DNA of 51,816 nt, from the NCBI GenBank assembly GCA_964569655.1, contig CAZMTN010000003.1, positions 1-51,816 on the forward strand, read 5' to 3'. A program made the translations under genes and the position numbers. Positions 547-50,771 of the stretch are shown one piece after another (position 1 is the stretch's first letter; each line of letters opens with the position of its first letter). The DNA is from an uncultured Candidatus Saccharibacteria bacterium (GTDB lineage Bacteria > Patescibacteriota > Minisyncoccia > Phycocordibacterales > Phycocordibacteraceae). Below the pieces are notes generated by a model. That model had not been told where the DNA came from and did not search any database. It saw only the letters and a list, made by a program, of their open reading frames with translations.

Positions 547-657
547 AGCTACCCCTCGTTGAAAGACCTTCGCTATACACCGGTATAGCAATGGCGCAGG
601 GCTTCTGTCAAAAACGGCGAGTGCTGCCTCCTGCGCACGTATGCTATCGTGATGAGC

Positions 658-1602
658 ATGACCAGCGGGAAAAAGACACTCCTCACCGGACTCCAGCCGT
701 CTGGAGATCTCCATATCGGCAACTACTTCGGCGCCTTGAAGCCGTTCGTGGACGCATACGGGAAATACGACAGCTACCTCATGATCGCGGACTACCACGC
801 GCTCACGTCGCTCCATGACCGGGATGCGCTCCGTCAGAACACCATTGAAGTGGTGAAGGACTACCTCGCTGCAGGCATCAATCCTGCTAAGGCGGTCATC
901 TTCAAGCAGTCGGACGTGCCGGCGCACACCGAGCTGGCCTGGATCTTCGACTGCCTCGTTACCGTCCCGTTCCTCATGCAAGGGCATGCCTATAAGGACA
1001 AGGTAGCGAAGGGCCTCGAGCCGAACGCAGGCCTCTTCACCTATCCGATGCTCATGGCAGCGGACATCCTCCTCTACAACACTGACGTAGTGCCTGTCGG
1101 CGAGGACCAGCGCCAGCATATCGAGTACGCCCGCGAAGCAGCTTCGAAGTTCAATCACGCGTTCGGCGAGCTCTTCAAAGAGCCGAAGGAGATGATCCTC
1201 TCGGGCGTCGGCATCGTGCCGGGCACGGACGGGAAGAAGATGAGCAAGAGCTACAAGAACACCATCCCGCTCTTCGGCTCAAGAGAAGAGCTCGCGAAGG
1301 CGGTCATGAGCATCGTCACGGACTCGGGTTCAGACAGGCCGGAGAACGTGTTCGCGATCCATAAGCTCCTCAAGACTGACGCGGAGCTCATGCCGCTGTA
1401 CGAGGACAAGAAGGGGAGGTATAAGGACCTGAAGGAGGCCCTCATTGAGGATCTCGACGCGTTCCTCGCTCCCATGCGAGAGAAGCGCGCATCCATCACG
1501 GACGCAGACGTGGCCAAGGTGCTGTCTTCAGGAGCTGAGAAGGCGAGGGCGGCGAGCGAAGCGAAGATGCAGGAGGTGCGGAAGGCGGTGGGCGTACGCT
1601 AA
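658..1602 (+). CDS. trpS: Tryptophanyl-tRNA synthetase
   Basis: TGLQPSG-LHIGNY (HIGH), YPMLMAADILLY, VPVGEDQ-QH, KMSKS; start placed at 658 from the -10 box at 645-650. Confidence 0.97.
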   Translation: MTSGKKTLLTGLQPSGDLHIGNYFGALKPFVDAYGKYDSYLMIADYHALTSLHDRDALRQNTIEVVKDYLAAGINPAKAVIFKQSDVPAHTELAWIFDCLVTVPFLMQGHAYKDKVAKGLEPNAGLFTYPMLMAADILLYNTDVVPVGEDQRQHIEYAREAASKFNHAFGELFKEPKEMILSGVGIVPGTDGKKMSKSYKNTIPLFGSREELAKAVMSIVTDSGSDRPENVFAIHKLLKTDAELMPLYEDKKGRYKDLKEALIEDLDAFLAPMREKRASITDADVAKVLSSGAEKARAASEAKMQEVRKAVGVR

Positions 1603-1659
1603 GTTGCTCAGCGCTGCCCGCTGCGCTATAAGGTAATGGGACAAAGAGGGCTTGGGCCA

Positions 1660-1881
1660 ATGATTCACCCGCTCATCGGTTGCATGGAGCGTACGGCGGA
1701 TGTCATTTTCACCGGACCTGATGCGCACGCCTTGCTTGCAGACTGGCTTCCGACAGCGGAAACCGAAACCCACACGGCTGCTCTTGTCGGGCAGATCTAT
1801 CTCGGCAAGAGCAAGCCGCCGGAATTGCATGCCTGGGTTATGCTGATTGAAAGGCCGGTACAGCTGAGCTTCGATTTCTGA
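1660..1881 (+). CDS. Small hypothetical protein (73 aa; alternative start 1636) ending in QLSFDF
   Basis: Fills the trpS-aspS gap; AGAGGG upstream of ATG 1660; possible TTGCTC-N17-TATAAG promoter; C-terminal clamp-binding-like hexamer. Confidence 0.5.
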   Translation: MIHPLIGCMERTADVIFTGPDAHALLADWLPTAETETHTAALVGQIYLGKSKPPELHAWVMLIERPVQLSFDF

Positions 1882-1942
1882 GTTTTAAGTACACGACGAT
1901 TACGCCCTGCGGATAACCGCAGGGCGTGGTATTTTATAGTCC

Positions 1943-3304
1943 ATGACCGAACGAACACTTATAGGGGAATTGGGACAGCGCGTCGGCGAGACCGTATCGA
2001 TCTCGGGCTGGGTAGATGTCCGCCGCGACCAGGGGAAGCTCATCTTCTTCGATTTCCGCGATCGCACCGGGAAAGCGCAAGGCGTGGTACTGCCGGGCTC
2101 TCCGGCAACTGACGTCGCCAAGGAGACGCGCAACGAGTTCGTCGTGCGCGTGGAGGGCATCGTGAACAAGCGCCCGGAGAAGAACGTCCAGGCGGATAAA
2201 CAGAACGGGGACATCGAGCTCGAGATCAAGGGCATCGAGGTCCTCGCTGCTGCCGAAGCGCTCCCGTTCGCCATGGATGCGGAGCTCAATCTCGATACGT
2301 TGCTTGATAACCGCCCGCTCACGCTCCGCACCGAGCAGGCCCGAGCCATCTTCAAAGTCCAGGCGGCCATTACGAGCGCCTACCGCACCTTCCTCAACGA
2401 TGAAGGCTTTACCGAATTCCAGGCGCCTAAGCTCATCGGCGATGATGCCGAAGGCAGCGGCGAGGTGTTTGCCGTGCCTTATTTCTACGGGAAGACCGCG
2501 CATCTTGCGACCTCCCCTCAGCTCTACAAGCAGATCATGGTCGGCGTCTATGAGCGCGTCTACGCGATCGGTAACGTGTTCCGCGCGGAGAAGCACTCCA
2601 CCTCGCGCCATCTGAACGAATACACCTCGCTCGATGTCGAGATGGGATTCATCAAGGATCATCATGACGTCATGGATATGGAGACGCGCTTCATGCGTTT
2701 CCTCATCGAGAAATTCAAGAAGCACTGCGCGACCGAATTCCAGCTCTTCAGCTCGGAGATCCCCACCGTTCCTGAGGAGGGCATCCCGTTCATGAAGCTC
2801 CGCGAGGCACAGGAGCTCATCTTCAAGGAGACCGGCAAGGACAAGCGCGAGGAGCCGGACCTCGAACCCGAGGACGAGCGCTGGCTCTGCGAATGGGCGA
2901 AGCGCGAGAAGGGCAGCGATTTCATCTTCGTCACGCACTACCCGGTCTCGAAGCGCCCGATGTACACCTTCGAGGATCAGGAGGACCCGGGCTTCACCAA
3001 GAGCTTCGACCTCCTCTTTAGGGGGCTTGAAATCACGACCGGCGGACAGCGCCGCCATGAGTACCAGAACCTCATCGACGGCATCCGCATGAAGGGACTC
3101 GACCCGGATCAGTTCTCGTATTACCTCCAGGCCTTCAAGTACGGCATGCCGCCGCACGGCGGATGGGGCATGGGGCTTGAACGTCTCACCGAGAAGATGC
3201 TCGGACTTGCTAACGTGAAGGAAGCGACGCTCTTCCCGCGCGATATCAATCGCATCGACGTACTCCTCTCGCAGGAAGATACCTCCAAGGGCGCATCGCT
3301 ATGA
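1943..3304 (+). CDS. aspS: Aspartyl-tRNA synthetase, short archaeal/non-discriminating type
   Basis: N-terminal OB fold (GWVDVRRDQGKLIFFDFRDRTG), LATSPQLYKQ, FRAEKH-TSRHLNEY, GGQR, PPHGG-G-GLERL; no GAD insertion. Confidence 0.93.
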   Translation: MTERTLIGELGQRVGETVSISGWVDVRRDQGKLIFFDFRDRTGKAQGVVLPGSPATDVAKETRNEFVVRVEGIVNKRPEKNVQADKQNGDIELEIKGIEVLAAAEALPFAMDAELNLDTLLDNRPLTLRTEQARAIFKVQAAITSAYRTFLNDEGFTEFQAPKLIGDDAEGSGEVFAVPYFYGKTAHLATSPQLYKQIMVGVYERVYAIGNVFRAEKHSTSRHLNEYTSLDVEMGFIKDHHDVMDMETRFMRFLIEKFKKHCATEFQLFSSEIPTVPEEGIPFMKLREAQELIFKETGKDKREEPDLEPEDERWLCEWAKREKGSDFIFVTHYPVSKRPMYTFEDQEDPGFTKSFDLLFRGLEITTGGQRRHEYQNLIDGIRMKGLDPDQFSYYLQAFKYGMPPHGGWGMGLERLTEKMLGLANVKEATLFPRDINRIDVLLSQEDTSKGASL

Positions 3305-5447: not shown

Positions 5448-5450
5448 GGC

Positions 5451-6026: not shown

Positions 6027-6083
6027 CCATCCCCACCTCTAGTGGGTAGCCCTCCTAGCCAAATAGGGCTAAAATGGCGATAT

Positions 6084-6629
6084 ATGGCGCTTTCACCATC
6101 CGCCGCCCTGGAGGCGCTCCTCTTCGCATCCGGCGAGCCGGTATCGAAGAAGCGACTTATGTCCCTTCTTGGCTTTTCTGCCGTCCAGCTTGATACCGTG
6201 ACTGGAGACCTCCGCAATTCGCTCTTCAATCGCGGGCTTGCCCTCATCGAAACGCATGAGGAACTTGACCTCCGTACGGCACCTGATGCCGGAGAATTCA
6301 TCAAGAAGATGCGCGAAGGGGAACTCACCAAGGACCTCGGCAAGGCCGGGCTTGAAGCGCTCGCTATCATCCTCTACAACGGCGGCGCCACCCGCAGCGA
6401 GATCGACTGGATCCGCGGCGTGAATTCCGCGCAGATCGTCCGCTCCCTCATGCTGCGCGGCCTCATCGAGCGCACCGAGGATGAGAAGGACAAGCGCAAG
6501 TTCATCTATCGCGGCACCACGGACGCGCTCGCGCATATCGGCGTCGGGCGGGTGGAAGACCTCCCGCGCTTCGCGGAGCTGAAGAAAGAGAGCGAGCTCG
6601 CGGTAGCCGCCGAAACCTCAGATGTATAA
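6084..6629 (+). CDS. scpB: Segregation and condensation protein B
   Basis: LEALLFASGEP, LEALAIILY, TRSEIDWIRGVNS, LM-RGLIE, Y-GT; ATG 6084 follows TAAAAT. Confidence 0.95.
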   Translation: MALSPSAALEALLFASGEPVSKKRLMSLLGFSAVQLDTVTGDLRNSLFNRGLALIETHEELDLRTAPDAGEFIKKMREGELTKDLGKAGLEALAIILYNGGATRSEIDWIRGVNSAQIVRSLMLRGLIERTEDEKDKRKFIYRGTTDALAHIGVGRVEDLPRFAELKKESELAVAAETSDV

Positions 6630-10499: not shown

Positions 10500-10516
10500 C
10501 TATACTGCCCGGAGCA

Positions 10517-11617
10517 ATGGCCCTACCCGAGCACGGCGTATCCATCGTGTCCTTGGTCGGCGCGCTCATCGAAGAGGCGTGCGCGGAACGCTGCTCCGAT
10601 CTCCATATCGATCCCGTACCTGACGGCGTCCGGGTGCGGATGCGCGCGGACGGCATCCTGCTCGATCGCCATGCGCTCCCGGCTCACGTGCACCAGGAGA
10701 TCATCTCCCGCATCAAGATACTGTCCGGTCTCCGCACCGACGAGCATAACGCGCCGCAGGACGGGCGTTTCCGCTACACCTTCGCGGACGGGAAGTGGGT
10801 GGATATCCGCGTCTCGGTGATGCCCACCTATCACGGGGAGAATGCCGTGCTGCGGCTCCTCGCGAACGCCGCAGAGGAGCAGACACTCGCCTCGCTCGGC
10901 TTCGGCGAGGAGGACCAGGCCCGGATCAGGAAGGCGCTCGAGCGCCGAGGCGGCATGATCCTTGCGACCGGCCCCACGGGCTCCGGAAAGACCACGACGC
11001 TTTATACCCTCATCCAGATGCTCAACCGACCGGATGTCTCCATCATGACGGTGGAGGACCCCATCGAGTACGCCATGGAGGGCGTCCGCCAGGTCCAAGT
11101 GAACCATCGGACCGGCCTTACGTTTGCCTCCGGCCTCCGCTCCATGCTGCGCCAGGATCCGGACGTGATCATGGTGGGCGAGGTACGGGACGCGGAGACG
11201 GCCGGCATCGCGGTGAATACCGCGCTCACGGGCCATCTCCTTCTCACGACGCTCCACACCACTAACGCAGCTACGTCCATCCCGCGCCTCCTCGACATGA
11301 AGGTGGAGCCGTACCTTGCCGCATCCACGATGCAGCTCGCCATCGGGCAGCGCCTCGTGCGCCGCATCTGCAAGGAATGCGCGAAGGAAGGATGCGATGC
11401 CTGCAAGGGTTCCGGGTATCGCGGGCGCATTTCCATAAACGAGGTATTAGTAGCCACCGACCGTATCCGGGACGCCATAGCCCGGAGAGCATCAGCGGGA
11501 GAGATACAGGGCATCGCGACAGAGGAAGGCATGCGGACCATGCTCGAGGACGGCATGCAAAAGGCGGAACGTGGAGAGACCACCCTCGAAGAAGTGCTGC
11601 GCGCCGTCCATGAATAG
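10517..11617 (+). CDS. GspE/PilB-family pilus assembly ATPase (short form)
   Basis: SDLHIDP, PQDGRF, Walker A GPTGSGKT, VEDPIEY, LRQDPDVIMVGEVRD, TGHL-LTTLH, CxxC..CxxC. Confidence 0.95.
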   Translation: MALPEHGVSIVSLVGALIEEACAERCSDLHIDPVPDGVRVRMRADGILLDRHALPAHVHQEIISRIKILSGLRTDEHNAPQDGRFRYTFADGKWVDIRVSVMPTYHGENAVLRLLANAAEEQTLASLGFGEEDQARIRKALERRGGMILATGPTGSGKTTTLYTLIQMLNRPDVSIMTVEDPIEYAMEGVRQVQVNHRTGLTFASGLRSMLRQDPDVIMVGEVRDAETAGIAVNTALTGHLLLTTLHTTNAATSIPRLLDMKVEPYLAASTMQLAIGQRLVRRICKECAKEGCDACKGSGYRGRISINEVLVATDRIRDAIARRASAGEIQGIATEEGMRTMLEDGMQKAERGETTLEEVLRAVHE

Positions 11618-14503: not shown

Positions 14504-14540
14504 TGGTCTCACTGTTATAGCAGAAATCGGGCAAAAGAAA

Positions 14541-15001: not shown

Positions 15002-15457
15002 CTACTGGAGCAAGGAATCTACAACCGCCTTCACGTCGCCGCCGTCCGCCTTGCCTTTGAGCTCCTTCATGAGGATGCCAGTGAACTTACCGGCCTCGGC
15101 CTTGCCGGTGATGCCGAGCTCCGCGATCTTCGCCTCCGCGATAGCCTTGATGTCCTCGCGGCTCATCATGGCCGGCATGAGGGACTCGATGATGACGAGC
15201 TCCTCCTTCTCGCCGCCCGTGAGCTCGATGCGGCCCGCGGCCTCGAACTGCTGGATGGAGTCCTTGCGCTGATTCGCCGCGCGTTTGAGCACCGCCTGCG
15301 CCTCCTCGTCCGTGAGGAACTGGTCCGGCTTGCGGCCTTTCGCTACCGCTTCGTTCGTCATCGCGGATACCAAGGAGCGCAGCGTGCGGAGCTTCGCCTC
15401 GTCCTTGGCGCGCATCGCGTCCGGGATGCTTGCCTTCAGGGATTCGTGTATAGCCAT
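15002..15457 (-). CDS. GatB/YqeY domain protein
   Basis: DAMRAKDEAKLRTLRS, KRAANQRKDSIQQFEAAGR-EL, KELKGKADG. Confidence 0.93.
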   Translation of the reverse strand: MAIHESLKASIPDAMRAKDEAKLRTLRSLVSAMTNEAVAKGRKPDQFLTDEEAQAVLKRAANQRKDSIQQFEAAGRIELTGGEKEELVIIESLMPAMMSREDIKAIAEAKIAELGITGKAEAGKFTGILMKELKGKADGGDVKAVVDSLLQ

Positions 15458-15559
15458 GCCCGCATAGTAGCACCTGGACATTATGCACAGGCCTGCTTGA
15501 TTTATTACAACTATAGTGGTATAGTAATTCCAGCCTGCACCCTTCAGCTGGAGATATCC

Positions 15560-15895: not shown

Positions 15896-15911
15896 GGGAT
15901 ATAATCAGCGC

Positions 15912-16967
15912 ATGGATATCGTCGCCGTAGGCATCATCGTCATCATCGTTTTCATACTCCAGGGCATCGGCCTCTGGTACCTCTTCGGCCGCAGGCAGGA
16001 CGTGCCCGCAGACAACGGCGGCATGCTGCTGCTCCAGAAGCAGGTCCAGGACATGGCGCGCTCCATCGATCAGCGCGTCTCGGAGTCGAGCAAGCAGATG
16101 CAGGACAGCGTCCACCGCCAGCTCACCGAATCCACGCGCATCATCCGGGAGGTGACCGAAGGACTCACCAAGCTCGATGAGACCAATAGGCAGGTGGTCT
16201 CCTTCGCGGACCAGCTCCAGGGGCTCCAGGATATCCTCAAGAACCCGAAGCAGCGCGGCATCCTCGGCGAGTACTACCTCGAGACCGTGCTCAAGAACGT
16301 CATGCCGCCCGGTAGCTACCAGATGCAGTTCCCGTTCGCGAACGGGGAGATCGTAGACGCGGTGGTGTTCGTGAAGGACCGCATCATCCCGATTGACTCC
16401 AAGTTCTCGCTCGAGAACTACAACCGCGCCATCGAGGCCCGTGACCCCGAGGACCGCGCCGTATACGAGAAGCAGTTCAAGACGGACCTCAAGAACCGCA
16501 TCGACGAGACCGCTAAGTACGTCCGTCCGGAGGAGAACACCATGGAATTCGCCTTCATGTTCATCCCCAGCGAGGGCATCTACTACGACCTCCTCTCGAA
16601 CCAGGTGGGGGCGCTCAAATCGGCTACCCGGGACCTCATCGAGTACGCCTTCCAGAAGAAGGTCATCATCGTCTCGCCGACCTCCTTCCTCGCGTACCTC
16701 CAGACCGTCATGCAGGGACTCAAAGGCATGCAGATCGAGGAGCAGGCAGCGGAGATCAAGAAGCGGGTAGGGGAGCTCGGGAAGCACGTGGCTGCCTTCG
16801 AGGAGTTCTACCGGAAGATCGGTGTCGCGCTCGGCACTACCGTTTCGCATTACAACAGCGCGTACAAGGAGCTCGCGAAGATAGACAAGGACGTCTACCG
16901 CATAGACGGGAGCAAGATAGGCATCGAGCAGAACCTTCTGGATAAGCCGGTAGCGGAGCTTGACTGA
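15912..16967 (+). CDS. rmuC: DNA recombination protein RmuC
   Basis: N-terminal TM and coiled coil, KQRGILGEYYLE, IPIDSKF-LENY, FAFMFIPSEG, SPTSFLAYL. Confidence 0.93.
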   Translation: MDIVAVGIIVIIVFILQGIGLWYLFGRRQDVPADNGGMLLLQKQVQDMARSIDQRVSESSKQMQDSVHRQLTESTRIIREVTEGLTKLDETNRQVVSFADQLQGLQDILKNPKQRGILGEYYLETVLKNVMPPGSYQMQFPFANGEIVDAVVFVKDRIIPIDSKFSLENYNRAIEARDPEDRAVYEKQFKTDLKNRIDETAKYVRPEENTMEFAFMFIPSEGIYYDLLSNQVGALKSATRDLIEYAFQKKVIIVSPTSFLAYLQTVMQGLKGMQIEEQAAEIKKRVGELGKHVAAFEEFYRKIGVALGTTVSHYNSAYKELAKIDKDVYRIDGSKIGIEQNLLDKPVAELD

Positions 16968-17454: not shown

Positions 17455-17483
17455 ACCTAGGCAAGTGGTACCTTTTGGGGACT

Positions 17484-17798
17484 ATGGAACTCGCAGTGAT
17501 CAAGACCGGGGGAAAGCAGTACCTCGTCCAGAAGGGTACTAATATTTACATCGAGAAGCTCCCGGAGGGGCTCACCGCAGGTGACCCGGTCACCTTCGAG
17601 GACGTCCTCATGACCGACGACGGCTCGACGCTTACCGTCGGCACCCCGATGGTGAAGGGCAAGTCCGTAAAGGGCACCGTCATCCGCGATGACAAGGGTA
17701 TCAAGAAGGAAGTCGTCCGTTACAAGGCGAAGAGCCGCTACCTGAAGCGCCGCGGACACCGCCAGCCGTACCTCAAGGTACAGATCGATTCGATCTAA
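17484..17798 (+). CDS. rplU: 50S ribosomal protein bL21
   Basis: AVIKTGGKQY, GTPMV-G, YK-KSRY-KRRGHRQPY. Confidence 0.97.
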   Translation: MELAVIKTGGKQYLVQKGTNIYIEKLPEGLTAGDPVTFEDVLMTDDGSTLTVGTPMVKGKSVKGTVIRDDKGIKKEVVRYKAKSRYLKRRGHRQPYLKVQIDSI

Positions 17799-17803: not shown

Positions 17804-17825
17804 AACCCGCCCTCCGGCGGGTTTT
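17804..17825 (+). terminator. Intrinsic terminator after rplU
   Basis: AACCCGCC-CTCC-GGCGGGTT plus TT. Confidence 0.65.
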
Positions 17826-18938: not shown

Positions 18939-18939
18939 A

Positions 18940-33126: not shown

Positions 33127-33549
33127 ATGCGAATTGCTTTGATTGCTGCGGTCATGGGCGCCCTGCTCTATTCGAGCGAGACGACCCATGCGAAGTTCGG
33201 TGGCAGCCGCCCTGCCTGCAAGACGGAAGAATGCAAGCGCGATCGCCTCGGCCGCTATTACCACCAGCCGCTTCTGGACCGCGTCTTCGAAATCAAGAAT
33301 CAGCCGACCTGGATCAAGCTCGACAGCAAGGCGGATGAGACCGCGTATATCGGCTTCGGCCAGGTCGACATAGAGAACAGGATCTGCTTCGTGACGCTCA
33401 AGAACTCCGGACATGCCGCTCGCGTGCAAGGTACGCAATGGGGCGGCGGCAGCAACTGGATCTTCCTGACCATCGGCCACAGGACCTACGCTGCTCGTTG
33501 CACAAGCGGCAAGGTCGTCCTCGAAGCCCAGGCGAACAATCCCGTCTAA
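33127..33549 (+). CDS. Secreted Cys-containing hypothetical protein, 140 aa (orphan)
   Basis: Signal peptide, four Cys, AAGGAG 7 nt upstream, consensus promoter, terminator. Confidence 0.7.
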   Translation: MRIALIAAVMGALLYSSETTHAKFGGSRPACKTEECKRDRLGRYYHQPLLDRVFEIKNQPTWIKLDSKADETAYIGFGQVDIENRICFVTLKNSGHAARVQGTQWGGGSNWIFLTIGHRTYAARCTSGKVVLEAQANNPV

Positions 33550-33927: not shown

Positions 33928-34179
33928 CTATTCTCCTACCAGATGCCTCGTAAAATGTTTCTTGATCGTTGCGTCGAGCGCTTTGCTGAACTGTATCGCG
34001 TGCTTCGGGGTCAGGACGATTTCAGCCACCAGTTGGCCGGCGGGCGCATTCGGCCTCAGGTACGCGAACTGAATGACCACGGAGTCGTCCGATACGGTCA
34101 CCTGGGTCGCATTCGAGAAGCTCGGCTTGGCATCCGCGGGCATGGTGACTGGCATGGCTCGATTCTTTTTGGATTCCAT
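33928..34179 (-). CDS. DUF3467-like small protein
   Basis: FSNA-V, VVIQFAY, IVLTPKHA-F-KAL pattern. Confidence 0.65.
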   Translation of the reverse strand: MESKKNRAMPVTMPADAKPSFSNATQVTVSDDSVVIQFAYLRPNAPAGQLVAEIVLTPKHAIQFSKALDATIKKHFTRHLVGE

Positions 34180-34185
34180 AGAGGA

Positions 34186-34380
34186 TTAGGTTAGCGATCT
34201 GAGCCAGTCTACGCCATCCTCAAGGAAAGATACGATGAAGTCCCAGCCAGTCTCGATGAGATCACCAACGTAGTCGAAATTCGCCTGGCCAGCAGGAGAG
34301 TTGATGATGCTCTGGATGGTGATCCCGAAGAATGAGAGCACGAGCAGCGCTACGATCCCGTAGAATATGAGTCTGAGCAT
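34186..34380 (-). CDS. Small membrane protein, 64 aa
   Basis: N-terminal TM, amphipathic C-terminus; TATCAT 6 nt upstream. Confidence 0.7.
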   Translation of the reverse strand: MLRLIFYGIVALLVLSFFGITIQSIINSPAGQANFDYVGDLIETGWDFIVSFLEDGVDWLRSLT

Positions 34381-34488
34381 CCCTCAATGATACCGCACGG
34401 AATTCTCGCTTGGACCTGATTTGCACAGCCTCCTCCCCTGCCCTGTCCGGTTCTCGGCCGACCGAGATTCATGAAACTTTGGCGTATT

Positions 34489-35832
34489 TTAAAGGTAGGA
34501 CATCGGATTCAAGTATCCGGTCGGAGGAGATACGGGCATGGTCGCGTTAGAGCAGCCTGTCCTGCTGCCGTCCCCGCGGTATTGGCCGAGCGACATGATC
34601 TGCACGCCACTGGCTGCGTACACGCCGAAATGAAGGTGCGGGCCGGTCGCGTAGCCGGTCATGCCTGAGTTCCCTATCACCTGCCCCATGCTTACGGATT
34701 GTCCGGACGATACGTTGATCGATGAGAGGTGCGCATACAACGTCGCGAGCCCGTTCGGATGCTTGATCATGACCCACTTGCCAAACGAGTAGCATCCCGG
34801 CACCGCGTCCGTATTGCCGATGCCGAGTACCGAGCCTGAAGCAGCGGCCTGGACTGGCGTACCGACCGGAGAGCCCATATCGATGGCGTTGTGGCCGTTT
34901 CCGTTATAGATCTGCGGATTCGCGGTTGAGAAAGGAGTATTCCCGAAATACTGCGTGATACAGAAATTATTCCCCAGCGCGGCGGCCTTACCTTTGCAGG
35001 TAGCCATGAACTCGGCAGAATACGGCCATGCGAGCACGCCCGTTCCGATGGCCGGAACGCTCGCCGATCCGACCGACGTGAGGCTTGCTTCGAGCGCATT
35101 AAGCGCAGCCTCGAACGACTTCTGCTCGGCGCGCTTCTTCGCGATGAGGTCCTGATAGACCGTCTCCTGATTCTTCGTCTGCGCGAGAAGCTTGTTCTTC
35201 TCGGCGATGGCGATATCAAGCTGCTTCTTCTCGTTCGCGAGCTTAGTGTTGAGCTCGGTGAGCTGCGACTTCTGCTTGTCCTCTGCGGTCTTCTGCTCCG
35301 AGAGGTCTTCCTTGGCGCTCGTGAGATCGGCGGTGTGCTTCTTCAGCGCCTCGTTGAGCGCCATGTTAGCGTCCACCGCGGACCAGAGGTCCCCGAGGCT
35401 CTGGGAGGAGAAGACGCGCTCTGAGAGCGATGTCGTGTCCGCCTCGGCGATCTCTCGTATGGACTGCGCGAGTATCTGGCGGTCGAGCTCTATCTCGTAC
35501 TCGGTCTGAGTGATCTCGCCCGAGAGCTGTTTCAGCTTCAGGTTGCTCGCGGAAATCTGATTCTGGGTCACCTTGAGCTGTGACGTGGTCTGCGCGCGAG
35601 AGGTATCGATGGTCTTGATGGTGGTCTGCAGCGTCTGCTTCTGGGTCCCGAGGATATTCAGCTGGTTCTGGAACGTGGCGATCTCATCCTCGATAGCCTT
35701 GATCTTGGCGTTGTGCTCTTCGATCTGGTCTTGGATGTCGCTCTGGGCCTGCGCCGGAGAGACGAAGCACGCCAGGAGAAGGAATGCGGCGCTCAGGTAA
35801 GCGAATTGGAGCGCGTGCGTGCGAAAGGTCAT
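34489..35832 (-). CDS. M23 metallopeptidase with long coiled coil (EnvC/MepM-like)
   Basis: Signal peptide, heptad coiled coil, HNAID (HxxxD), YAHLS, GYATGPHLHF (HxH). Confidence 0.92.
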   Translation of the reverse strand: MTFRTHALQFAYLSAAFLLLACFVSPAQAQSDIQDQIEEHNAKIKAIEDEIATFQNQLNILGTQKQTLQTTIKTIDTSRAQTTSQLKVTQNQISASNLKLKQLSGEITQTEYEIELDRQILAQSIREIAEADTTSLSERVFSSQSLGDLWSAVDANMALNEALKKHTADLTSAKEDLSEQKTAEDKQKSQLTELNTKLANEKKQLDIAIAEKNKLLAQTKNQETVYQDLIAKKRAEQKSFEAALNALEASLTSVGSASVPAIGTGVLAWPYSAEFMATCKGKAAALGNNFCITQYFGNTPFSTANPQIYNGNGHNAIDMGSPVGTPVQAAASGSVLGIGNTDAVPGCYSFGKWVMIKHPNGLATLYAHLSSINVSSGQSVSMGQVIGNSGMTGYATGPHLHFGVYAASGVQIMSLGQYRGDGSRTGCSNATMPVSPPTGYLNPMSYL

Positions 35833-35853
35833 CAGCACCATTGTACGACAGAG

Positions 35854-37289: not shown

Positions 37290-38444
37290 TTATGCGGCAG
37301 CCTGCTCAGGCGTCTCGTGCGTGAGCGCGATGCGGATTGCCTCTTCGGCGATGAGGCGCGCGGCGTTCCCGGGCATGAAGGCGCTTCCCTTCTCTGCCAT
37401 GCGCGCCGACAGCGCCTTGTCCGACACGATGCGCCGCGCCTCGGATACGAGCACGTTCGGCGTGAGGTTGGTCTCCTCGAGCACGGCAGCGCCGCCCGTA
37501 TGCGCGTACGCGTACGCATTAGTGCGCTGGTCGTGGCTCACCGTCTCCGGGATAGGGATGAGGATAGCCGGCTTCTTCCAATGCGAGATCTCCGCAATGG
37601 CCGTGGCGCCGGCGCGCGAGATGATGAGGTCTGCGACTCCCGACGCGCGACGCATCGCGTCCGCGGAAAGATACGCGAACGGATGGTAGCGGCTCGCGTG
37701 CGGATTATCCTGCAGCACCACCTTGCTCATGCTCTCCACCGTACCGATCTCCTTCTTCCCTGTCTGATGGATGACGTTCGCGAATGCGACCATATCCGAA
37801 AGACCCGCGAGCACGGTCTCGTTCATGCGCTGCGAGCCGGTCGAGCCGCCGAGAATGAGGACGGTGGGCGCGTCATCGAGACCGAGCTCCTGGCGAGCGC
37901 CCTCAGGCGCGGGACCCGTAAGCTCCTTCCTGATCGGGATGCCCACGAGCGCGATCTTCCCGCGTACCTTCTCCGGGAAGTAAGAAGCTGCTCCCGGAAA
38001 CGCGATGCCGATGCGTTCCGCATGCTTCGCGGCAAGGAGGTTCGCGCGGCCCGGCTTCGAATCCGATTCATGGACGATAACCGGGATGCCGATGAGGCGA
38101 GCCGCGAGCGTCACCGGGACGCTGCCGAATCCGCCGCGAGAGACGATGACGTCTGGGTAGATGCGGAAGAGCTCGTACACCGCGTCTACGAACCCGAAGA
38201 TGGTGTGGGCGACGTCGATGACGTTCTGGATCGAGAAATAGCGGCGGACCCTGCCCGCATCGATGCGAACGAAGACCATATTGTTCTGGAAGAGGGCTTC
38301 CTGGTCGTACGGCTCCGGCGCAAGGTAGTAGAGCTTGGGGGTGACGAGTTGCCGCTCCCCGACGACATCGCGGATAGCCTCAGCTATAGCGATGAGGGGG
38401 TAGAAATGACCGCCGGTTCCGGCTCCCGTGAACACAATCTTCAT
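37290..38444 (-). CDS. murG: Lipid II GlcNAc transferase
   Basis: TGAGTGGHFYP, GGFGSVP, HESD-PG-AN, G-PIR, LILGGS-GS, ISRAGA, HDQR-NA. Confidence 0.95.
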   Translation of the reverse strand: MKIVFTGAGTGGHFYPLIAIAEAIRDVVGERQLVTPKLYYLAPEPYDQEALFQNNMVFVRIDAGRVRRYFSIQNVIDVAHTIFGFVDAVYELFRIYPDVIVSRGGFGSVPVTLAARLIGIPVIVHESDSKPGRANLLAAKHAERIGIAFPGAASYFPEKVRGKIALVGIPIRKELTGPAPEGARQELGLDDAPTVLILGGSTGSQRMNETVLAGLSDMVAFANVIHQTGKKEIGTVESMSKVVLQDNPHASRYHPFAYLSADAMRRASGVADLIISRAGATAIAEISHWKKPAILIPIPETVSHDQRTNAYAYAHTGGAAVLEETNLTPNVLVSEARRIVSDKALSARMAEKGSAFMPGNAARLIAEEAIRIALTHETPEQAAA

Positions 38445-38490
38445 ACGTATAAGGATACTACCATTCCCGGCCCTATACGCCTCCGGGCTG

Positions 38491-42365: not shown

Positions 42366-44093
42366 TTATTGGCTAGTATACTCCGCACGGTCTGGGGGCA
42401 CATCGTAATAGTTCGTGAGGAAGTGCACAAGCTCGAGGAAGGAAGAGGTGAGCGTCTCAGACGCGTATTGCACGCCCTGCGGCTCGCGCGTATAGAGGAG
42501 GATGATGAACTCCGGGTCATACGCCGGGAAGTAACCGAAGAAGGAATGGAAGTAGCGATCCGTGTAATACCCGCCCTCCGGAGACGCCATCTGCGCGGTA
42601 CCGGTCTTCGCAGCGACGCTCATCTCCGGAGTCCGCGCACGGCCATCGAGGAGCGTCGTATCCACGACCTTGGTGAGCATCCCGCTCACCGTCGCCGCGG
42701 TCGCCGGCGTAAATACCTGATCCGGCTCGCCCCACGAGAGCTTCCTCGTAACGCCCGAGTCGAGGCGGATGGCGGTCGCCAGATGCGGCGTCACGATGGC
42801 GCCGTCATTCGCGAGCGCACCGAGCGCGCGGATCATCTCTATCGGCGTCTGTGCGACGCCCTGTCCATACGACGCCGTAAAGAAGTTGATGTCTCGATCC
42901 ACATCGAGGTTCCCAAGCGTTCCCTTAATCTCTCCCGGGAGATCCACGCCAGTCTCCGTGTCCATGCCGAGCTCCTTGAAATAGCTGCGCATATGGTCGT
43001 GCCCTGCCCGGCCGGCGATCCAGGACGCGCCGACGTTAAGCGATTGTGAGAGCACCTCCTGTACGGCCACGACGCCGCGTGCCTTGAGGTCGAAGTTGCA
43101 GATCTTCTTCGTATTTGCGGTGATGCAGCCGGTATCGTTGTAGGTCGTGTCCGGGGTCACCACGCCGGTGTCGATGCCGATACCCATGGTGAGCGCCTTC
43201 ATGATGGATCCGAATTCGTAGCGGCTCTCGATGAGCGGGTTGCCGAAGACGCCCACGTCTTCGCCCTGGAAGTCGTTCGGATCGAAGGAGGGGAAGGCGT
43301 CGAGCGCGAGAATCTCGCCGGTCTTCGGATTCATGATAATCCCGCCGGTCTCCCTGCTGTTGTAGCGCTCATGCACGTCCTTGAGCACCTCGTCGAGCTT
43401 CTCGATGACCATGGGCTCGATCGAAGTGACCACGTCTCCCTTCTTCGCGTCTCGCGCATCGGCGACGACGCTCCCTATGTCCGCGAACAGCTCAGCGAAG
43501 AAATTGCCGAAGAGTCCCTCCCCCTCGCGCGATAGCGTGCCTTGGTAGTAGCGCTCGAGCCCGTACCTGCCGACGATCTGGTCCTCATTGTCGTACGCGA
43601 CGAAGCCGATGGATTGCGCTGCCTTCCGCACGGCCGGGTACGCGCGCCAGCGCTCGCGGATTACGGTAACTCCGGGGATGTCGAGCGCATCGATGGTCTT
43701 GCCGTCGAGCTCGGACACCTGGTCCGCGATCTCCTCGTAGGGGTCCCCCTCCTTGTTCGCGCGCATGATGAAATCCTCCCGGTCTATGTCGATGACCGCC
43801 GAAAGCGCCGTGTATGCCGCCTCGGCATCTATGACCTTCTCAGGATTGATGGCCACGAGGAAGCCGGTGGCGAGCGTCGCCGCCGAGATGAGCGTCCCGT
43901 CCTTGCGGGTGAAGTAGATGGTGCCGCGATCATAGAGTTGCTGGCTCGTGTTTATGTATTGATGCTCCGCACGGAGCGAGTATTCTTCTCCGTTTACGAT
44001 CTGTAAGAAATAGAGCCGCACGATGAGGAGCGCGGCGAACGCGAGTATGACGCACACCAGGATGCGGAGCCGGGATCTGAAGACGTGCCGCAT
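42366..44093 (-). CDS. ftsI: Class B penicillin-binding protein (FtsI-like)
   Basis: RGTIY, G-YGLE, YEFGSIMK (SxxK), SLN (SxN), KTGTAQ; position in the mraZ operon. Confidence 0.88.
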   Translation of the reverse strand: MRHVFRSRLRILVCVILAFAALLIVRLYFLQIVNGEEYSLRAEHQYINTSQQLYDRGTIYFTRKDGTLISAATLATGFLVAINPEKVIDAEAAYTALSAVIDIDREDFIMRANKEGDPYEEIADQVSELDGKTIDALDIPGVTVIRERWRAYPAVRKAAQSIGFVAYDNEDQIVGRYGLERYYQGTLSREGEGLFGNFFAELFADIGSVVADARDAKKGDVVTSIEPMVIEKLDEVLKDVHERYNSRETGGIIMNPKTGEILALDAFPSFDPNDFQGEDVGVFGNPLIESRYEFGSIMKALTMGIGIDTGVVTPDTTYNDTGCITANTKKICNFDLKARGVVAVQEVLSQSLNVGASWIAGRAGHDHMRSYFKELGMDTETGVDLPGEIKGTLGNLDVDRDINFFTASYGQGVAQTPIEMIRALGALANDGAIVTPHLATAIRLDSGVTRKLSWGEPDQVFTPATAATVSGMLTKVVDTTLLDGRARTPEMSVAAKTGTAQMASPEGGYYTDRYFHSFFGYFPAYDPEFIILLYTREPQGVQYASETLTSSFLELVHFLTNYYDVPPDRAEYTSQ

Positions 44094-44102
44094 GCGCCCA
44101 GA

Positions 44103-44387
44103 TTACTCTCCTGCGCGCGTGACGCTCGGCGCATCTGCCGCGCGAGCGAACACCTTCTTGCTCGGGAGCACGAAGCCGTACTGTGCCGGATCCTCCGCAT
44201 TCATGCGGGCGATCGCCTCGTAGTACTGGGCCTCGAGCACGCCGATGGAAGCCTCAGCGTCATTCACGCGCCCAATCATCTCGGTCTGCCAGTTGGCGAG
44301 GAAGATGGTGGCGATGACGAGCGCGATGTAGATCGCGACCATGCCGCAGAGGGATGCGCCCAGGTACATACGAATTCGGCTATGCAT
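44103..44387 (-). CDS. FtsL-like bitopic protein
   Basis: One TM plus short coiled coil between rsmH and ftsI (positional inference). Confidence 0.6.
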   Translation of the reverse strand: MHSRIRMYLGASLCGMVAIYIALVIATIFLANWQTEMIGRVNDAEASIGVLEAQYYEAIARMNAEDPAQYGFVLPSKKVFARAADAPSVTRAGE

Positions 44388-46608: not shown

Positions 46609-48178
46609 AGTTCACTGCCTCTTCCAATCTTTCGATTACGAAATCCCGCGGCAGCACAGATAGGAACCATCCCGCCTTCGGTCCTGAGTCGCGATTGAGG
46701 AAGAGCCGGTAGATCGCGGTGAAAAGCTCCTTCGGTGCAATCGAAACTTCATCCTTGAGCTCATGCAGCTTCGCGTGCATATCTTCCCCGTTCTTCTCTC
46801 CCTCCCGCATGAACGAAAGCAGCGAGACCATCGCGTGCTTCTGCGTGTCCGAGAGCGCGTATGCCGGCAGTTCCTGCTGAAGCTCGTAGCGGTACTGCTC
46901 AGGCGCATACGTGGAGAGCCAGAACTTCGCGTACCCGGCGCGCTCCGCGAGCGCTTCCTTCTCCTCGTCGTTCAAGGCGCTGCCCTTCACGCGCGCAGCT
47001 TCCTCTTCAAGATTCAGATGCGGCATCTGCACTATGAACGCCACCTGCGAGAAGCGCAGCATCCACGGGAGCGGCACGTCTCCCTGGTTCTCCGGGGTCT
47101 GGGTGAGCGTGAAGAGGCGGGTGTAGTCGGTATCGCCGCCGCTGCGGACGTACTCAGCGAGCTCATCGTACCAGTCGTACCAGCGCGGCACACTCTCGCC
47201 TTCGGGCTCGAAGTTGATCTGCTCCTTTATGTCTTTCCCAATGAGCGCGAGGCGGAACACGGACGGCGGGAAGAGCTCCGCGATATCCCTCGCGGACGTG
47301 CCCCTCCCCTTCGACGAGGACATCTTCTTCCCGCCGACGAGGAAGAACTCGTACGGGATATTGTATGGCGGCTCATAGCCGTAGACCTCCCTGGCGATGT
47401 GGTTCGAGACATCGCGGGAACCGCCTTTGGTCGAGTGGTCCTTCCCGCCACCTTCGACGTCCACCCCGAGCGCCACCCACTTTGCGGCCCAATCCACCTT
47501 CCAGAAGAGCTTTGCCGTGCCGCCGTACGGCGCGATGCGTCCTGAATGCCCGCATGCCTTCACCTCGTCCGGATTCTTATCGCAGGCGTACGCGACGGTC
47601 TCACCATCGAAGTCGTAGACGCGGGTGGTCATCATCTTCCCGCACTGCTCGCACACCACCGATACCGGGAGCCAACTATCGTCCTTCACTGAACCGGATA
47701 CTTCCTTCAGGATGCGGCGGATATCTGGAGCGCGCTCGAGCGCTACCTTGATGAGCGCATCCATCTTTCCCGCCTTGTACAGGTCTGCATAGGCGCGGTA
47801 GTAGGTTGGCGTGAATCCGCCCTTCGCATGGACACTCGCGAACTCTGCGCCGAAGTACTCGGCGTAATTCGGATATGCCGGGTCCGGAGACGGCACTGCA
47901 TAGAGCGGCTTCCCGAGATGTTCCGCATAGGCCTGCGCATCCAGATAGCCCGGAACCGAGTCGAACGGATCAAAGTCGTTAAGCTCGTAGCGGTATTCGT
48001 TCTGAATGCCGTACTCGCTCAATACTTCCGCGATGATCCCGTGAATGGCAACGCCGCGCATGGAGCCGATATGGACGCGGCCGGAAAGGGTCTTCTCATC
48101 GCGGATAAGGAGCGGCTTGTCCGCCTTTCCTGCGCGCGATTCCTGGATTTCTCTCGCGATGCGGTCTGCCCAAAACAT
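46607..48178 (-). CDS. lysS: Class I lysyl-tRNA synthetase
   Basis: MFWAD, SG-VHIG-MRG, W-P-V-C-CG, KL-WKVDW, GGKDH, PYEFF, KMSSSKG. Confidence 0.95.
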   Translation of the reverse strand: MFWADRIAREIQESRAGKADKPLLIRDEKTLSGRVHIGSMRGVAIHGIIAEVLSEYGIQNEYRYELNDFDPFDSVPGYLDAQAYAEHLGKPLYAVPSPDPAYPNYAEYFGAEFASVHAKGGFTPTYYRAYADLYKAGKMDALIKVALERAPDIRRILKEVSGSVKDDSWLPVSVVCEQCGKMMTTRVYDFDGETVAYACDKNPDEVKACGHSGRIAPYGGTAKLFWKVDWAAKWVALGVDVEGGGKDHSTKGGSRDVSNHIAREVYGYEPPYNIPYEFFLVGGKKMSSSKGRGTSARDIAELFPPSVFRLALIGKDIKEQINFEPEGESVPRWYDWYDELAEYVRSGGDTDYTRLFTLTQTPENQGDVPLPWMLRFSQVAFIVQMPHLNLEEEAARVKGSALNDEEKEALAERAGYAKFWLSTYAPEQYRYELQQELPAYALSDTQKHAMVSLLSFMREGEKNGEDMHAKLHELKDEVSIAPKELFTAIYRLFLNRDSGPKAGWFLSVLPRDFVIERLEEAVN

Positions 48179-48257
48179 GAGTGCATCCTAGCATGAGTTG
48201 CGATATGCCTCGTTTTATGGCTGAATGGCTCGGTATTCGATAAAGGGGAGTTCTTTG

Positions 48258-48529: not shown

Positions 48530-48536
48530 ATTTCCC

Positions 48537-49013
48537 TTACGCAACCTTCTCGACCGAATACGTCTGCTTCCCGTTGGGCGTCTCGAAGGTGAAGACTTCC
48601 CCCTTCTTCTTGCCCATGAGCGCTGCGCCGAGCGGCGAAAGGTGGGAGAGCTTGCGCTCGCGCATGTCGGCTTCCTCGCTGCCGACGATGGTGTACTCGT
48701 GCGCCTCAGCGCCGCCGCTCTTCTTGATGGAGACCTTGGTGCCGAAGCCGACGACGTCCTTCTTCTTGTTGTCCGTCTGGATCTTCGCGTGCTTCACGAG
48801 CTCGTCGAGCTTGCGGATGCGCTCCTCGGTCGCAGCCTGGAGCTCGCGCGCCTCCTGGTACTCCGCGTTCTCGGAAAGGTCGCCGAGTGAGCGGGCGTAC
48901 TCGAGATTCTTCGCGATCTCCGTGCGGCGCACGGTCTTCAAGTGCTCGAGCTCCTTGGTCATCTCGTCGAATTTGTCCTGCGAGACGATGGTCTCTTTGT
49001 CGATTTCCTGCAT
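48537..49013 (-). CDS. greA: Transcription elongation factor GreA
   Basis: ARSLGDLSENAEY, V-FG-KV, YTIVGSEEAD, S-SPLG-AL. Confidence 0.97.
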   Translation of the reverse strand: MQEIDKETIVSQDKFDEMTKELEHLKTVRRTEIAKNLEYARSLGDLSENAEYQEARELQAATEERIRKLDELVKHAKIQTDNKKKDVVGFGTKVSIKKSGGAEAHEYTIVGSEEADMRERKLSHLSPLGAALMGKKKGEVFTFETPNGKQTYSVEKVA

Positions 49014-49073
49014 GAAAATTAGGTTACGGTGGGCTAATTGTACCGGTAGCAAGAATTGGCGCAAGGAAGCGCC

Positions 49074-50735
49074 TTATTCGAAGTAATACGGGGCGTTCTT
49101 GTGCAGGGCCTGGAGCACCTGGTGCATGACGTAGACGCCTCCGCGCAGACTTCCGGCCGGACCCTTCTCCATGACGACGACATATGCGTACTTCGGATTG
49201 TCATGCGGGAAGTACCCCACTGCCCACGAGTTCTGGAACTCGTTATTGAAGCCAAGCTGGGCGGTACCGGTCTTCCCCGCCGCTTCCACGAAGGAGAGGT
49301 CATTGAGACCGAGCGACGTGCCTACGGTGACGCCGAGCCGCATGCCCTCGCGAGCGATGCGCAGGCCTTCCGCGTTTATCGCGATGGTCTCGCCAGAGGG
49401 TTCGGCATCAGCGCGCAGCGTGGTATGGAGCAGCTTGCCGCCATTGGCGACCGCAGCCACCGCGCGCGCAGCTTCGAGCGGCGTCACCTGCATGGCGTAC
49501 TGCCCGATCGCGGTGTTGTAGGTGTCGCCGATGCGCCACGGCTCGTCGAACGTCTCCTCCTTCCAGGCTGGCGTCGGGAGGAAGCCGCTGTTCTCGCCGG
49601 AGAGCTCGATGCCCGTCGGCGTATCGAAGCCGAACGCGCGATACCAGTAGTTGAGGCGGTCGATGCCGAGGCCCTTCTGGTCCGCGAACCCGCCGCCGAT
49701 CGAGTAGAAGTAGACGTCAGAAGACCACGCTACCGCATGCCGCATGTCCATCGCGCCATGGGCTTTCCAGTCCTTAAAGATGGACGGCTTGTCTGGATTG
49801 TAAGGGTTCGGAATGGAGATGGATCCTGAGGAGAAGATAGTCTTCTCCGCCGAGATGATGCCGTCCGAGAATGCGCCTGCGGCTTCCATCGGCTTCACGA
49901 TGGACCCGGGCGTGTAGAGGCCCGCAACCGGGCGATTCAGGTACGGCCGGCGCGGATCCTCCTGATAGCCCCGGATTACGTCGCCCGGGCCGCCGGAAGA
50001 CATCACGTTCGAGTCGAACTCCGGATACGAAACGAGCGCATGGATCTCGCCCGTATTCACGTCCATGAGGACCCCCGATCCGCTCTGGTACCCGGTCGCG
50101 TCCGCCGTATCCTGGATGGCGTGATAGAACGCCTCCTGCGCATGCGCGTCGATGGAAAGCGTAAGCGTCTCTCCGTTCACGGGCGGTATGAGGCTCCCCT
50201 GAGACACCACGTTCCCGCGCGCATCCTCCTCGATGAGGAGCGAACCGTTCTCTCCGGAAAGTTCCTCGTCAAACGCGGATTCGACGCCAGCCAAGCCTTC
50301 TACTTCGTACGTGTAGTAGTAGCCGGACTTGTCTTTCTTCGGATACGAGACGTAGCCGAGGAGCGCCGAGAATCCCGGCGCGCGATAGACGCGCTTCGCG
50401 AAGGTGCCGTCTCCCGGCTCGTTCTCGATGAGCGGAATGCCGTTCCGGTCCATCACTGCGCCGCGCGTAGCGAAGATGGTCTCGGGACGCAGCACGTTCT
50501 TCTCGCTCTGCTCGGCATAGGCCGTACCCTGCATCACCTGCAGCTTCCCTGCTTGTCCCATAAGCACGAGGAGCGCGAGCAGGATGACGCCGCCGAAGGC
50601 GTAATACGTGGCGCGCGAGATGGGCTGCTCGAACCGGCCCTCGAACTGCGCCTTGTCGAATTCGGGGAGGTTGCTCGCGTCGAGGAAAATCTCGTCTGGA
50701 GCGATCTCATGGTCCCGATAGCGACGGCGAAACAT
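49074..50735 (-). CDS. mrdA: Class B penicillin-binding protein (PBP2-like)
   Basis: RGAVMDRNG, G-AGVE, YTPGSIVK (SxxK), WSSDVYFY, KTGTAQ; downstream of mreC. Confidence 0.88.
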   Translation of the reverse strand: MFRRRYRDHEIAPDEIFLDASNLPEFDKAQFEGRFEQPISRATYYAFGGVILLALLVLMGQAGKLQVMQGTAYAEQSEKNVLRPETIFATRGAVMDRNGIPLIENEPGDGTFAKRVYRAPGFSALLGYVSYPKKDKSGYYYTYEVEGLAGVESAFDEELSGENGSLLIEEDARGNVVSQGSLIPPVNGETLTLSIDAHAQEAFYHAIQDTADATGYQSGSGVLMDVNTGEIHALVSYPEFDSNVMSSGGPGDVIRGYQEDPRRPYLNRPVAGLYTPGSIVKPMEAAGAFSDGIISAEKTIFSSGSISIPNPYNPDKPSIFKDWKAHGAMDMRHAVAWSSDVYFYSIGGGFADQKGLGIDRLNYWYRAFGFDTPTGIELSGENSGFLPTPAWKEETFDEPWRIGDTYNTAIGQYAMQVTPLEAARAVAAVANGGKLLHTTLRADAEPSGETIAINAEGLRIAREGMRLGVTVGTSLGLNDLSFVEAAGKTGTAQLGFNNEFQNSWAVGYFPHDNPKYAYVVVMEKGPAGSLRGGVYVMHQVLQALHKNAPYYFE

Positions 50736-50771
50736 GCGTCTATCGTATCGCAAACGGCTAGCGAGGGCGAA

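Follow-up and report, generated by a model that had tools for sequence, protein, structure and literature searches.

The 51.8-kb stretch of DNA analysed here (hereafter the window), a contig portion of an uncultured Candidatus Saccharibacteria bacterium, raises the question of how translation starts on genes that carry a promoter-like TAnnnT hexamer only 6-9 nt upstream of the start codon. The window has ~60% GC, with a GC3 (GC at third codon positions) of ~0.8 within coding frames, and contains ~56 protein genes, one complete tRNA-Glu(CUC) gene and a partial tRNA gene. An initial annotation had listed 20 genes with such a box, and had proposed that leaderless initiation is the default for housekeeping genes and that what look like operons are successions of genes with promoters of their own. 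All 20 combinations of hexamer, spacer and start were found at the expected coordinates. If Nk denotes k nt between the hexamer and the start codon, eight boxes lie at N6, eight at N7, two at N8 and two at N9, so that the reported sixteen of 20 at N6-7 is correct; the extended TG said to accompany many of them is present as TGnTAnnnT in 8/20, compared with a background of 6.1% among TAnnnT hexamers at large in the related loci described below. The gene names agree with Pfam matches to TrpRS, archaeal-type AspRS, ScpB, YqeY, RmuC, L21, DnaB, CysRS, CorA, S41 peptidase, CAP, L9, an Ada-like Zn domain, MBL, M23, MurG, class I LysRS, GreA and PBP2.

The box is far more frequent than chance allows. 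Motif-position analysis gave a TAnnnT peak at N6-9 both in the window and in the related loci. In a curated list of 54 window genes, 24 have TAnnnT at N6-9, compared with 2.7±1.6 genes when the 40 nt upstream of each start were shuffled (5000 rounds, maximum 10), and other 4-nt position windows upstream of these genes contain 1-5 boxes each. The box observation is thus confirmed. Could it nevertheless be an artefact of starts fitted to the motif, of upstream stop codons (TAA or TAG followed by nnT) or of AT-rich intergenic composition? For several genes 2-3 starts are possible, a few boxes include the upstream stop codon, and coding DNA is less AT-rich than intergenic DNA. The controls largely refute this explanation, which we regard as highly improbable: the peak persists when the first ATG/GTG of each open reading frame (ORF) is taken mechanically as the start (box in 16/51 window genes), and in the same DNA the box precedes 22/101 in-frame ATG/GTG but only 3/79 out-of-frame ones (Fisher p=4e-4). 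In-frame stops are impossible at spacers 7 and 8, yet the box is 5-fold enriched there. It is also still present when starts are fixed by orthologue N-termini alone, which coincide with the chosen starts (offset 0) in 50/53 orthologues of yqeY, 50/53 of rmuC, 62/62 of rplU, 58/58 of corA and 63/63 of rplI. The chosen starts fit the onsets of Pfam domains as well (L9 at residue 1, LysRS at 2, MBL at 2, murG at 3), and in aspS and lysS an in-frame stop lies just 5' of the chosen start.

The 20 boxes are as follows (coordinates from box to start codon, strand, gene, and box-spacer-start with the position of the start codon in brackets).

645..660, plus strand, trpS: TGcTATCGT-N7-ATG(658); Pfam tRNA-synt_1b from residue 8 of the 649 start
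1930..1945, plus strand, aspS: TGgTATTTT-N7-ATG(1943)
6070..6086, plus strand, scpB: TAAAAT-N8-ATG(6084)
15455..15469, minus strand, yqeY: TGcTACTAT-N6-ATG(15457)
15900..15914, plus strand, rmuC: TATAAT-N6-ATG(15912), directly 3' of a bidirectional terminator hairpin at 15860-15889
17469..17486, plus strand, rplU (L21): TGgTACCTT-N9-ATG(17484), with a -35 TTGTCT at 17-nt spacing
20299..20316, minus strand, dnaB: TGaTAGCAT-N6-GTG(20301)
21763..21777, minus strand, cysS: TAGACT-N6-ATG(21765)
22695..22709, minus strand, corA: TATACT-N6-ATG(22697)
22760..22775, plus strand, ctpA (S41 peptidase): TGcTATGAT-N7-ATG(22773), divergent from corA
28107..28122, plus strand, CAP-domain protein: TATAAT-N7-ATG(28120), 3' of a terminator-like hairpin at 28069-28097
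29121..29138, plus strand, rplI (L9): TAGGAT-N9-ATG(29136), with a -35 TTGCGG at 17-nt spacing
30244..30260, plus strand, Ada-like Zn-binding protein: TGgTATGCT-N8-ATG(30258), back-to-back with the rpmA promoter
30689..30704, plus strand, MBL-fold hydrolase: TATACT-N7-ATG(30702)
34378..34392, minus strand, 64-aa protein: TATCAT-N6-ATG(34380)
35830..35845, minus strand, M23 peptidase: TACAAT-N7-ATG(35832)
38442..38457, minus strand, murG: TATCCT-N7-ATG(38444); Pfam domain from residue 3
48176..48190, minus strand, class I lysS: TGcTAGGAT-N6-ATG(48178)
49011..49026, minus strand, greA: TAACCT-N7-ATG(49013), a weak box with a better TACAAT 23 nt upstream
50733..50747, minus strand, mrdA (PBP2): TACGAT-N6-ATG(50735)

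Four of these are weaker cases: the trpS box is ambiguous, with a second register TATGCT(640-645)-N6-ATG(652); the TATTTT of aspS occupies the same bases as the T-tract of the trpS terminator hairpin (1899-1930); greA has the better box farther upstream; and the cysS box is kept in only 51% of orthologues. Terminator hairpins run straight into the next -10 box at aspS, rmuC, rplU and CAP, and at rplU the -35 itself lies inside the tail of the hairpin at 17420-17447. Boxes at the stop of the preceding gene, also pointed out initially, are indeed present: the cysS box begins 2 nt past the corA stop TAA, and the dnaB box abuts the cysS stop, whose TGA (20314-20316) forms the TGn of the extended -10, an arrangement repeated in orthologues. 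The final cysS codons also contain TTGAC ~15 nt 5' of the dnaB box; coding constraint, and not a role as a -35, may be the reason why it is conserved.

To see how far the arrangement extends, a DnaB search of contigs from one genome per species was used, which gave 80 related loci at 72-86% identity, from metagenome-assembled genomes (MAGs) labelled Patescibacteria, Paceibacteria, Parcubacteria or 'Candidatus Kaiserbacteria' with a GC content of 0.42-0.65. These matches place the window in a Paceibacteria/Kaiserbacteria-like clade of the candidate phyla radiation. Their genes were called by a self-trained codon model (~1,165 ORFs, start = first ATG/GTG), and the box was normally counted at N6-9; raw genome-wide TAnnnT-Nk-ATG counts taken without gene context were drowned by coding periodicity and are not usable. 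The spacer histogram shows 181 boxes at N6, 93 at N7, 107 at N8 and 125 at N9, against ~20 per position elsewhere, and control motifs of the same composition (ATnnnT, TTnnnA, AnnnTT) have no comparable peak in these loci. In-frame ATG/GTG have the box upstream in 26.4% of cases, out-of-frame ones in 4.3-5.7% (p=7e-93), and every GC bin from 0.42 to 0.65 shows a 5-6-fold excess. A 50-kb region of E. coli put through the same pipeline lacked the box peak and showed a strong Shine-Dalgarno (SD) peak.

Conservation was then read gene by gene, with orthologue starts set by N-terminal alignment only and the box scored at N5-9. It is highest for corA (55/58, 95%), rplI (59/63, 94%, at N8/N9), yqeY (46/53, 87%), rplU (54/62, 87%, of which 47/62 exactly at N9 with a conserved 'ACT ATG'), dnaB (67/80, 84%; the start is ATG in 76/80) and rmuC (44/53, 83%), followed by ctpA (42/57, 74%), Ada-like (37/51, 73%), M23 peptidase (11/15), the 64-aa protein (14/24) and cysS (37/73, 51%). 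No conservation was seen in the sequence flanking the box in orthologues. The box is scarce in orthologues of murE (12%) and gltX (9%), both of which are box-less in the window too. Among families with at least five members, 15/24 carry the box in at least 60% of their members.

What kind of element is it? An alignment of 625 boxes from the 80 loci, selected for TAnnnT alone, shows T (0.50) and G (0.63) at -3/-2 of the box, which corresponds to the extended -10 element (promoter -15/-14), a TTG at -23 to -21, which corresponds to a -35 at 17-bp spacing, and a box interior near TAtaaT. TGn accompanies 25-68% of boxes in every genomic context, compared with 6.1% of all TAnnnT, and a TTG -35 accompanies 34-42% of boxes at co-directional genes, compared with a background of 5.5% and with only 8% at divergent genes. 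Base 7 after the box is A in 42% of N7, 47% of N8 and 67% of N9 boxes, and in N6 boxes a pyrimidine occupies base 6 in 73% of cases, directly before the A of ATG (Y-1 R+1). Start codons are ATG in 91% of boxed genes versus 78% of the others.

We therefore consider it likely that the boxes belong to sigma70 extended -10 promoters that yield leaderless mRNAs or mRNAs with a leader of 1-3 nt. From the sequence we infer the transcription start sites and the mode of translation as follows. The TAnnnT hexamers would each be the -10 of a sigma70-type promoter. In most cases this promoter would belong to the extended -10 class (TGnTAnnnT), its -35 being weak or missing, and the polymerase would start at the A of the start codon at N6 and 1-3 nt 5' of the start codon at N7-9. 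The resulting mRNAs, devoid of a 5' untranslated region (UTR) and an SD, would undergo leaderless translation, in which the ribosome and initiator tRNA bind the 5'-terminal AUG. Such an arrangement would be used by ~45% of window genes, including most conserved housekeeping genes, and similarly in ~80 related Paceibacteria species. Where a gene overlaps its predecessor or follows it within 3 nt, box and SD are usually both missing and translation would probably be coupled; a minority of lineage-specific hypothetical genes have a classical promoter, a leader and an SD.

The same box can be asked whether it acts on RNA instead, as an AT-rich non-SD ribosome-binding or unstructured signal on leadered mRNAs like that of Bacteroidetes (group B of GeneMarkS-2). 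In favour of this, the motif, AT-rich although the genome has 60% GC, occupies the position expected of a ribosome-binding site (RBS), it precedes 54% of co-directional genes with gaps of 0-15 nt, SD motifs are rare here, and loss of the anti-SD is reported in part of Parcubacteria (PMC9297842). SD scarcity and an AT-rich motif near the start are indeed shared with group B, where, however, the motif precedes all genes including operon-internal ones and has no promoter features. Here the motif comes with the sigma70 signature of an upstream TG and a TTG at 17-bp spacing, A is enriched at base 7 whatever the spacer length, there is no general A/T enrichment between box and start in the related loci, and the box is depleted at overlapped internal genes (30% in the related loci, where the control is 14%, vs 54-77% in other contexts; 3/17 in the window). 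The class of co-directional genes with 0-15 nt gaps is dominated by dnaB and cysS orthologues. Moreover, a box of this type precedes a tRNA gene:

14504..14522, minus strand, tRNA-Glu(CUC) promoter: TGcTATAAC, 10 nt before the mature 5' end, of the same extended -10 type

Among 33 orthologous loci, the majority have TGnTATAAA 9-11 nt ahead of the mature 5' end of tRNA-Glu. The element thus serves a gene that is never translated. Taken together, these features argue strongly against a non-SD RBS, and we regard the RBS explanation as very unlikely. The predicted pre-tRNA leader of tRNA-Glu is only ~3 nt.

Several results weigh against the reading of the boxes as leaderless promoters, or narrow it. 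By chance alone, 2-3 of the 24 window boxes are expected. The ~1,165 genes of the related loci form 295 families of which only 24 have at least five members, so that they are not independent, and in small families the box is found in only 34% of genes against a control of ~14%. At tight junctions, 14/93 boxes are partly made of the upstream stop codon. At tRNA-Glu the last base of the box is A or C, where T is usual. As a positive control, megaplasmid MP1 of D. radiodurans gave a weak signal, only 4 boxes at N6-9 beside a clear SD peak, and it represents a leaderless chromosome poorly. A scan of the window for combined -35 and -10 consensus found 15 sites against ~14.4 expected, none of them one of the 20 listed boxes; such a scan is uninformative for -10-dominated promoters. 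The full consensus is not enriched, so that the case for promoters rests on the -10 plus TGn. Finally, of the window genes that overlap the upstream gene or lie <=3 nt from it, 14/17 have no N6-9 box and only 3/17 have one.

This last result shows that real operons exist. The 14 box-less tight-junction genes are pepA, dacA, ftsW, pilC, pilin, RNaseT, LOG, gltX, recR, mraW, ftsL-like, mreD-like, scpA (box at N10 only) and the LVIVD-repeat gene, and only one of them, the LVIVD-repeat gene (AGGAG), is preceded by an SD-like motif. Judging from the junctions, termination-reinitiation coupling is the probable mode of translation of these genes. In gltX orthologues the overlap ...CACGAATC-ATGA is conserved, and recR abuts the dnaB stop:

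18336-18938, minus strand, recR: ATG(18938) 1 nt after the dnaB stop TAA (TAA-t-ATG; junction 18936..18942), with no box and no SD

Genes without upstream overlap or abutment behave differently: 21/35 (~60%) have a box at N6-9, and 24/35 when N10-12 is included. Own boxes are found at junctions of 9-46 nt before cysS, dnaB, MBL, M23, rplI, mrdA and murG, and in the same-strand chain corA>cysS>dnaB both cysS and dnaB carry one across gaps of 12-14 nt. The view of apparent operons as successions of genes with their own promoters is therefore partly supported: boxes are present at the same-strand junctions of corA>cysS>dnaB, MBL, M23, mrdA and murG, but as a general rule the view lacks support, with 14/17 tight-junction genes having no box. 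The genome, as read from its sequence, is a mosaic of short units, each with a putative leaderless head gene and coupled followers, and not uniformly one promoter per gene.

The existence of operons also invites the explanation that the boxes are real but secondary or internal promoters, with expression mainly from longer, leadered polycistronic transcripts and conventional operons. The corA-cysS-dnaB gaps of 12-14 nt are too short for terminators and read-through is likely there, the box-less tight-junction genes point to polycistronic units, and greA and murE have better -10 boxes at N21-23. The boxed genes behind terminator hairpins (aspS, rmuC, rplU, CAP) or at divergent junctions (corA/ctpA, yqeY/rmuC) cannot, from their position, be served by an upstream promoter; read-through transcripts would leave boxed AUGs without an SD; and the box is kept in 83-95% of orthologues of the best-conserved genes. 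Expression mainly from leadered transcripts thus appears unlikely to us, although less so than the RBS explanation, and leaderless extended -10 promoters remain our preferred reading.

Boxes outside the listed 20, and genes with longer spacers, are given next.

44091..44105, minus strand, PBP/ftsI-like gene: TAATCT-N6-ATG(44093); the TAA is the upstream gene's stop, and the box may be due to chance
34177..34193, minus strand, DUF3467 gene: TAACCT-N8-ATG(34179)
10501..10519, plus strand, pilT/pilB-type ATPase gene: TGcTATACT-N10-ATG(10517)
4691, 25132 and 29611: N10-12 boxes also at scpA, the 25148 gene and the 29629 gene, respectively

In an otherwise unassigned gap, TATAAT-N6-ATG(32913) opens a 37-aa ORF, MKRTRRLNTKKLEVYAFWTGFMSTVISLVQVIIIANH, at 32901-33026 (plus strand). 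Judged by its sequence, it may be a small unannotated leaderless gene for a membrane protein.

How, then, are the remaining genes started? SD-like motifs were found 4-8 nt before lineage-specific hypothetical genes starting at 14913(-), 15560(+), 14304(-), 17045(+), 17883(+), 33127(+) and 46109(+), and several of these genes also have a classical -35/-10 promoter and a leader; those at 17883, 33127, 14913 and 15560 are of the leadered, SD-led type. Two of them are clear counter-examples to leaderless initiation; rpmA, also outside the listed 20, has a promoter farther from its start.

17824..17885, plus strand, leadered hypothetical gene: TTGACT-16-CATACT, then GGGAGGG 5 nt before ATG(17883)
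33038..33129, plus strand, leadered gene: TTGACA-17-TATACT (11/12 consensus), a ~55-nt leader and TAAGGAG before ATG(33127)
29966-30289, minus strand, rpmA (L27), promoter to start 30236..30289: TTGCCT-17-TGcTATAGT, N22 to ATG(30238)

The predicted rpmA leader is ~15 nt and contains no SD. The promoter is conserved, the gene has ~80% nucleotide identity across 60 loci, and the rpmA promoter and the Ada-like box, on opposite strands, have ~30 bp in common. The mraZ gene (minus strand) starts at ATG 45752 (MFIGEY), which is not the longest ORF. In its upstream region (45823-45876), GTGGG-type direct repeats at 45841-45876 lie beside a TATACT box, and the leader is ~70 nt, so that the head of the dcw cluster would be leadered; by analogy, the repeats resemble MraZ autoregulatory sites.

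The two kinds of start are distributed very differently. Among window genes without a Pfam match, 7/15 have an SD-like motif and 2/15 a box; among those with a match, the numbers are 1/41 and 22/41 (p=2e-4 for the SD-like motif). In the 80 loci, where GGAG at spacers 6-8 reaches a maximum of 23 against a background of ~8 (~3-fold), the box precedes 63% of genes in conserved families (at least 10 members) and 30% of singletons and doubletons, whereas GGAG at 5-9 nt precedes 1.2% of the former and 23.5% of the latter (p=2e-29); this split between core and accessory genes is to be read with the facts that the motif itself guided the choice of starts in the SD class and that a few dozen syntenic families make up the conserved class. 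SD use thus appears to be confined to non-conserved genes. No 16S 3' end that could be inspected for an anti-SD was found in the loci examined; the SD use by accessory genes suggests that an anti-SD is present in this genome. As to leaderless initiation as the default for housekeeping genes, the box in 22/41 Pfam-matched genes, its clade-wide occurrence and its conservation are consistent with it.

These features can be brought together, tentatively, in a two-tier scheme of initiation for the whole clade. Core genes would be leaderless, transcribed from extended -10 promoters often nested in the preceding gene's 3' end, stop or terminator; internal genes would be coupled; and the SD would serve accessory genes almost exclusively. 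We put this scheme at somewhat less than an even chance. In functional terms it might correspond to features reported for Parcubacteria, namely reduced ribosomes, the frequent loss of bS21 and a partial loss of the anti-SD. Tsurumaki et al. (2022) found an anti-SD detectable in only 48% of Parcubacteria 16S genes and bS21 often absent (PMC9297842), and a clade with SD-independent core genes fits this picture.

Among known systems, the closest is group C of GeneMarkS-2, in which a Pribnow box lies 6-8 nt from the starts of leaderless first genes; the group is frequent in Actinobacteria (90%) and Deinococcus-Thermus (97%), with 25-50% of units predicted to be leaderless and 167/262 genes mapped as such in D. 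deserti (PMC6028130). The window (N6-9) and group C (Mycobacterium, Streptomyces, Corynebacterium, Deinococcus-Thermus) share a Pribnow-type box at about -10 of starts, promoter-proximal starts together with SD-led genes in one genome, and a comparable leaderless fraction, predicted in the present case. They differ in that the present genome belongs to a reduced-genome clade of the candidate phyla radiation (CPR)/Patescibacteria, which is not mentioned in the main text of that paper; in that the SD is far scarcer (GGAG at 5-9 nt before ~1% of conserved genes); and in that boxes are also frequent at very tight same-strand junctions, within the upstream 3' end or stop. Archaeal group D (haloarchaea, Sulfolobus) is similar in having most first genes leaderless, as predicted here, and the SD for a minority of genes or internal ones, but its TATA box lies ~26 nt upstream, whereas the bacterial -10 lies ~12 nt upstream here (PMC6028130). 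With the extended -10 (TGnTATAAT) of E. coli and Gram-positive bacteria the boxes share the TG one base upstream, the weak or dispensable -35 and a predicted start ~7 nt downstream at a purine after a pyrimidine; here, however, the predicted +1 is the start codon, and the tRNA-Glu variant has A or C as its final base. Leaderless transcripts of M. tuberculosis have been tied more to non-growth and toxin-antitoxin genes, whereas the box here sits on core housekeeping genes.

A literature search found no report of this architecture for CPR, Patescibacteria, Parcubacteria or Saccharibacteria. The only CPR set of transcription start sites (TSS) found in the literature is that of N. lyticus, which is coverage-inferred, and neither promoters nor UTRs are analysed in the preprint on the TM7x transcriptome. 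The type of architecture is thus already known from group C; its lineage, the near-SD-free core, the core/accessory split and the nesting of promoters in stops and terminator tails are possibly new.

A few further observations concern the rest of the window. An Rfam scan matched only tRNAs. At positions 1-63 (plus strand) the edge of the window truncates a tRNA, leaving its 3' part (Rfam 30.8 bits), and a hairpin follows at 75-104. The uncalled gaps at 9718-9884, 38977-39320, 45786-46108 and 48179-48536, 170-360 nt long, have no Rfam match and no similarity in the 80 loci, and an 87-aa ORF at 48225-48488 (plus strand) has no Pfam match. Two conserved 'intergenic' blocks were considered as RNAs and rejected, as they turned out to be recR, whose block is conserved in 76/80 loci, and rpmA. 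The Logan contig SRR15237806 (8.8 kb) falls inside the window, and its public gene call gives an scpB product of 181 aa; a search for further public contigs encoding lysS gave no match.

If the leaderless reading is true, start prediction in Parcubacteria/Paceibacteria MAGs needs a leaderless model with the promoter at minus 10, and SD-trained callers misplace starts and overlook small leaderless ORFs. The rule TGnTAnnnT-N6-ATG would provide testable promoter and TSS predictions, through metatranscriptome 5' ends, for organisms that are nearly all uncultured. The compaction of these genomes would extend to the use of the same bases by promoters, terminators and stop codons. Core genes independent of the SD would help to explain how ribosomes work without an anti-SD or bS21 in Parcubacteria (PMC9297842), and deep-branching, genome-reduced bacteria would enter the discussion of whether leaderless initiation is an ancestral trait or one that has been derived repeatedly.

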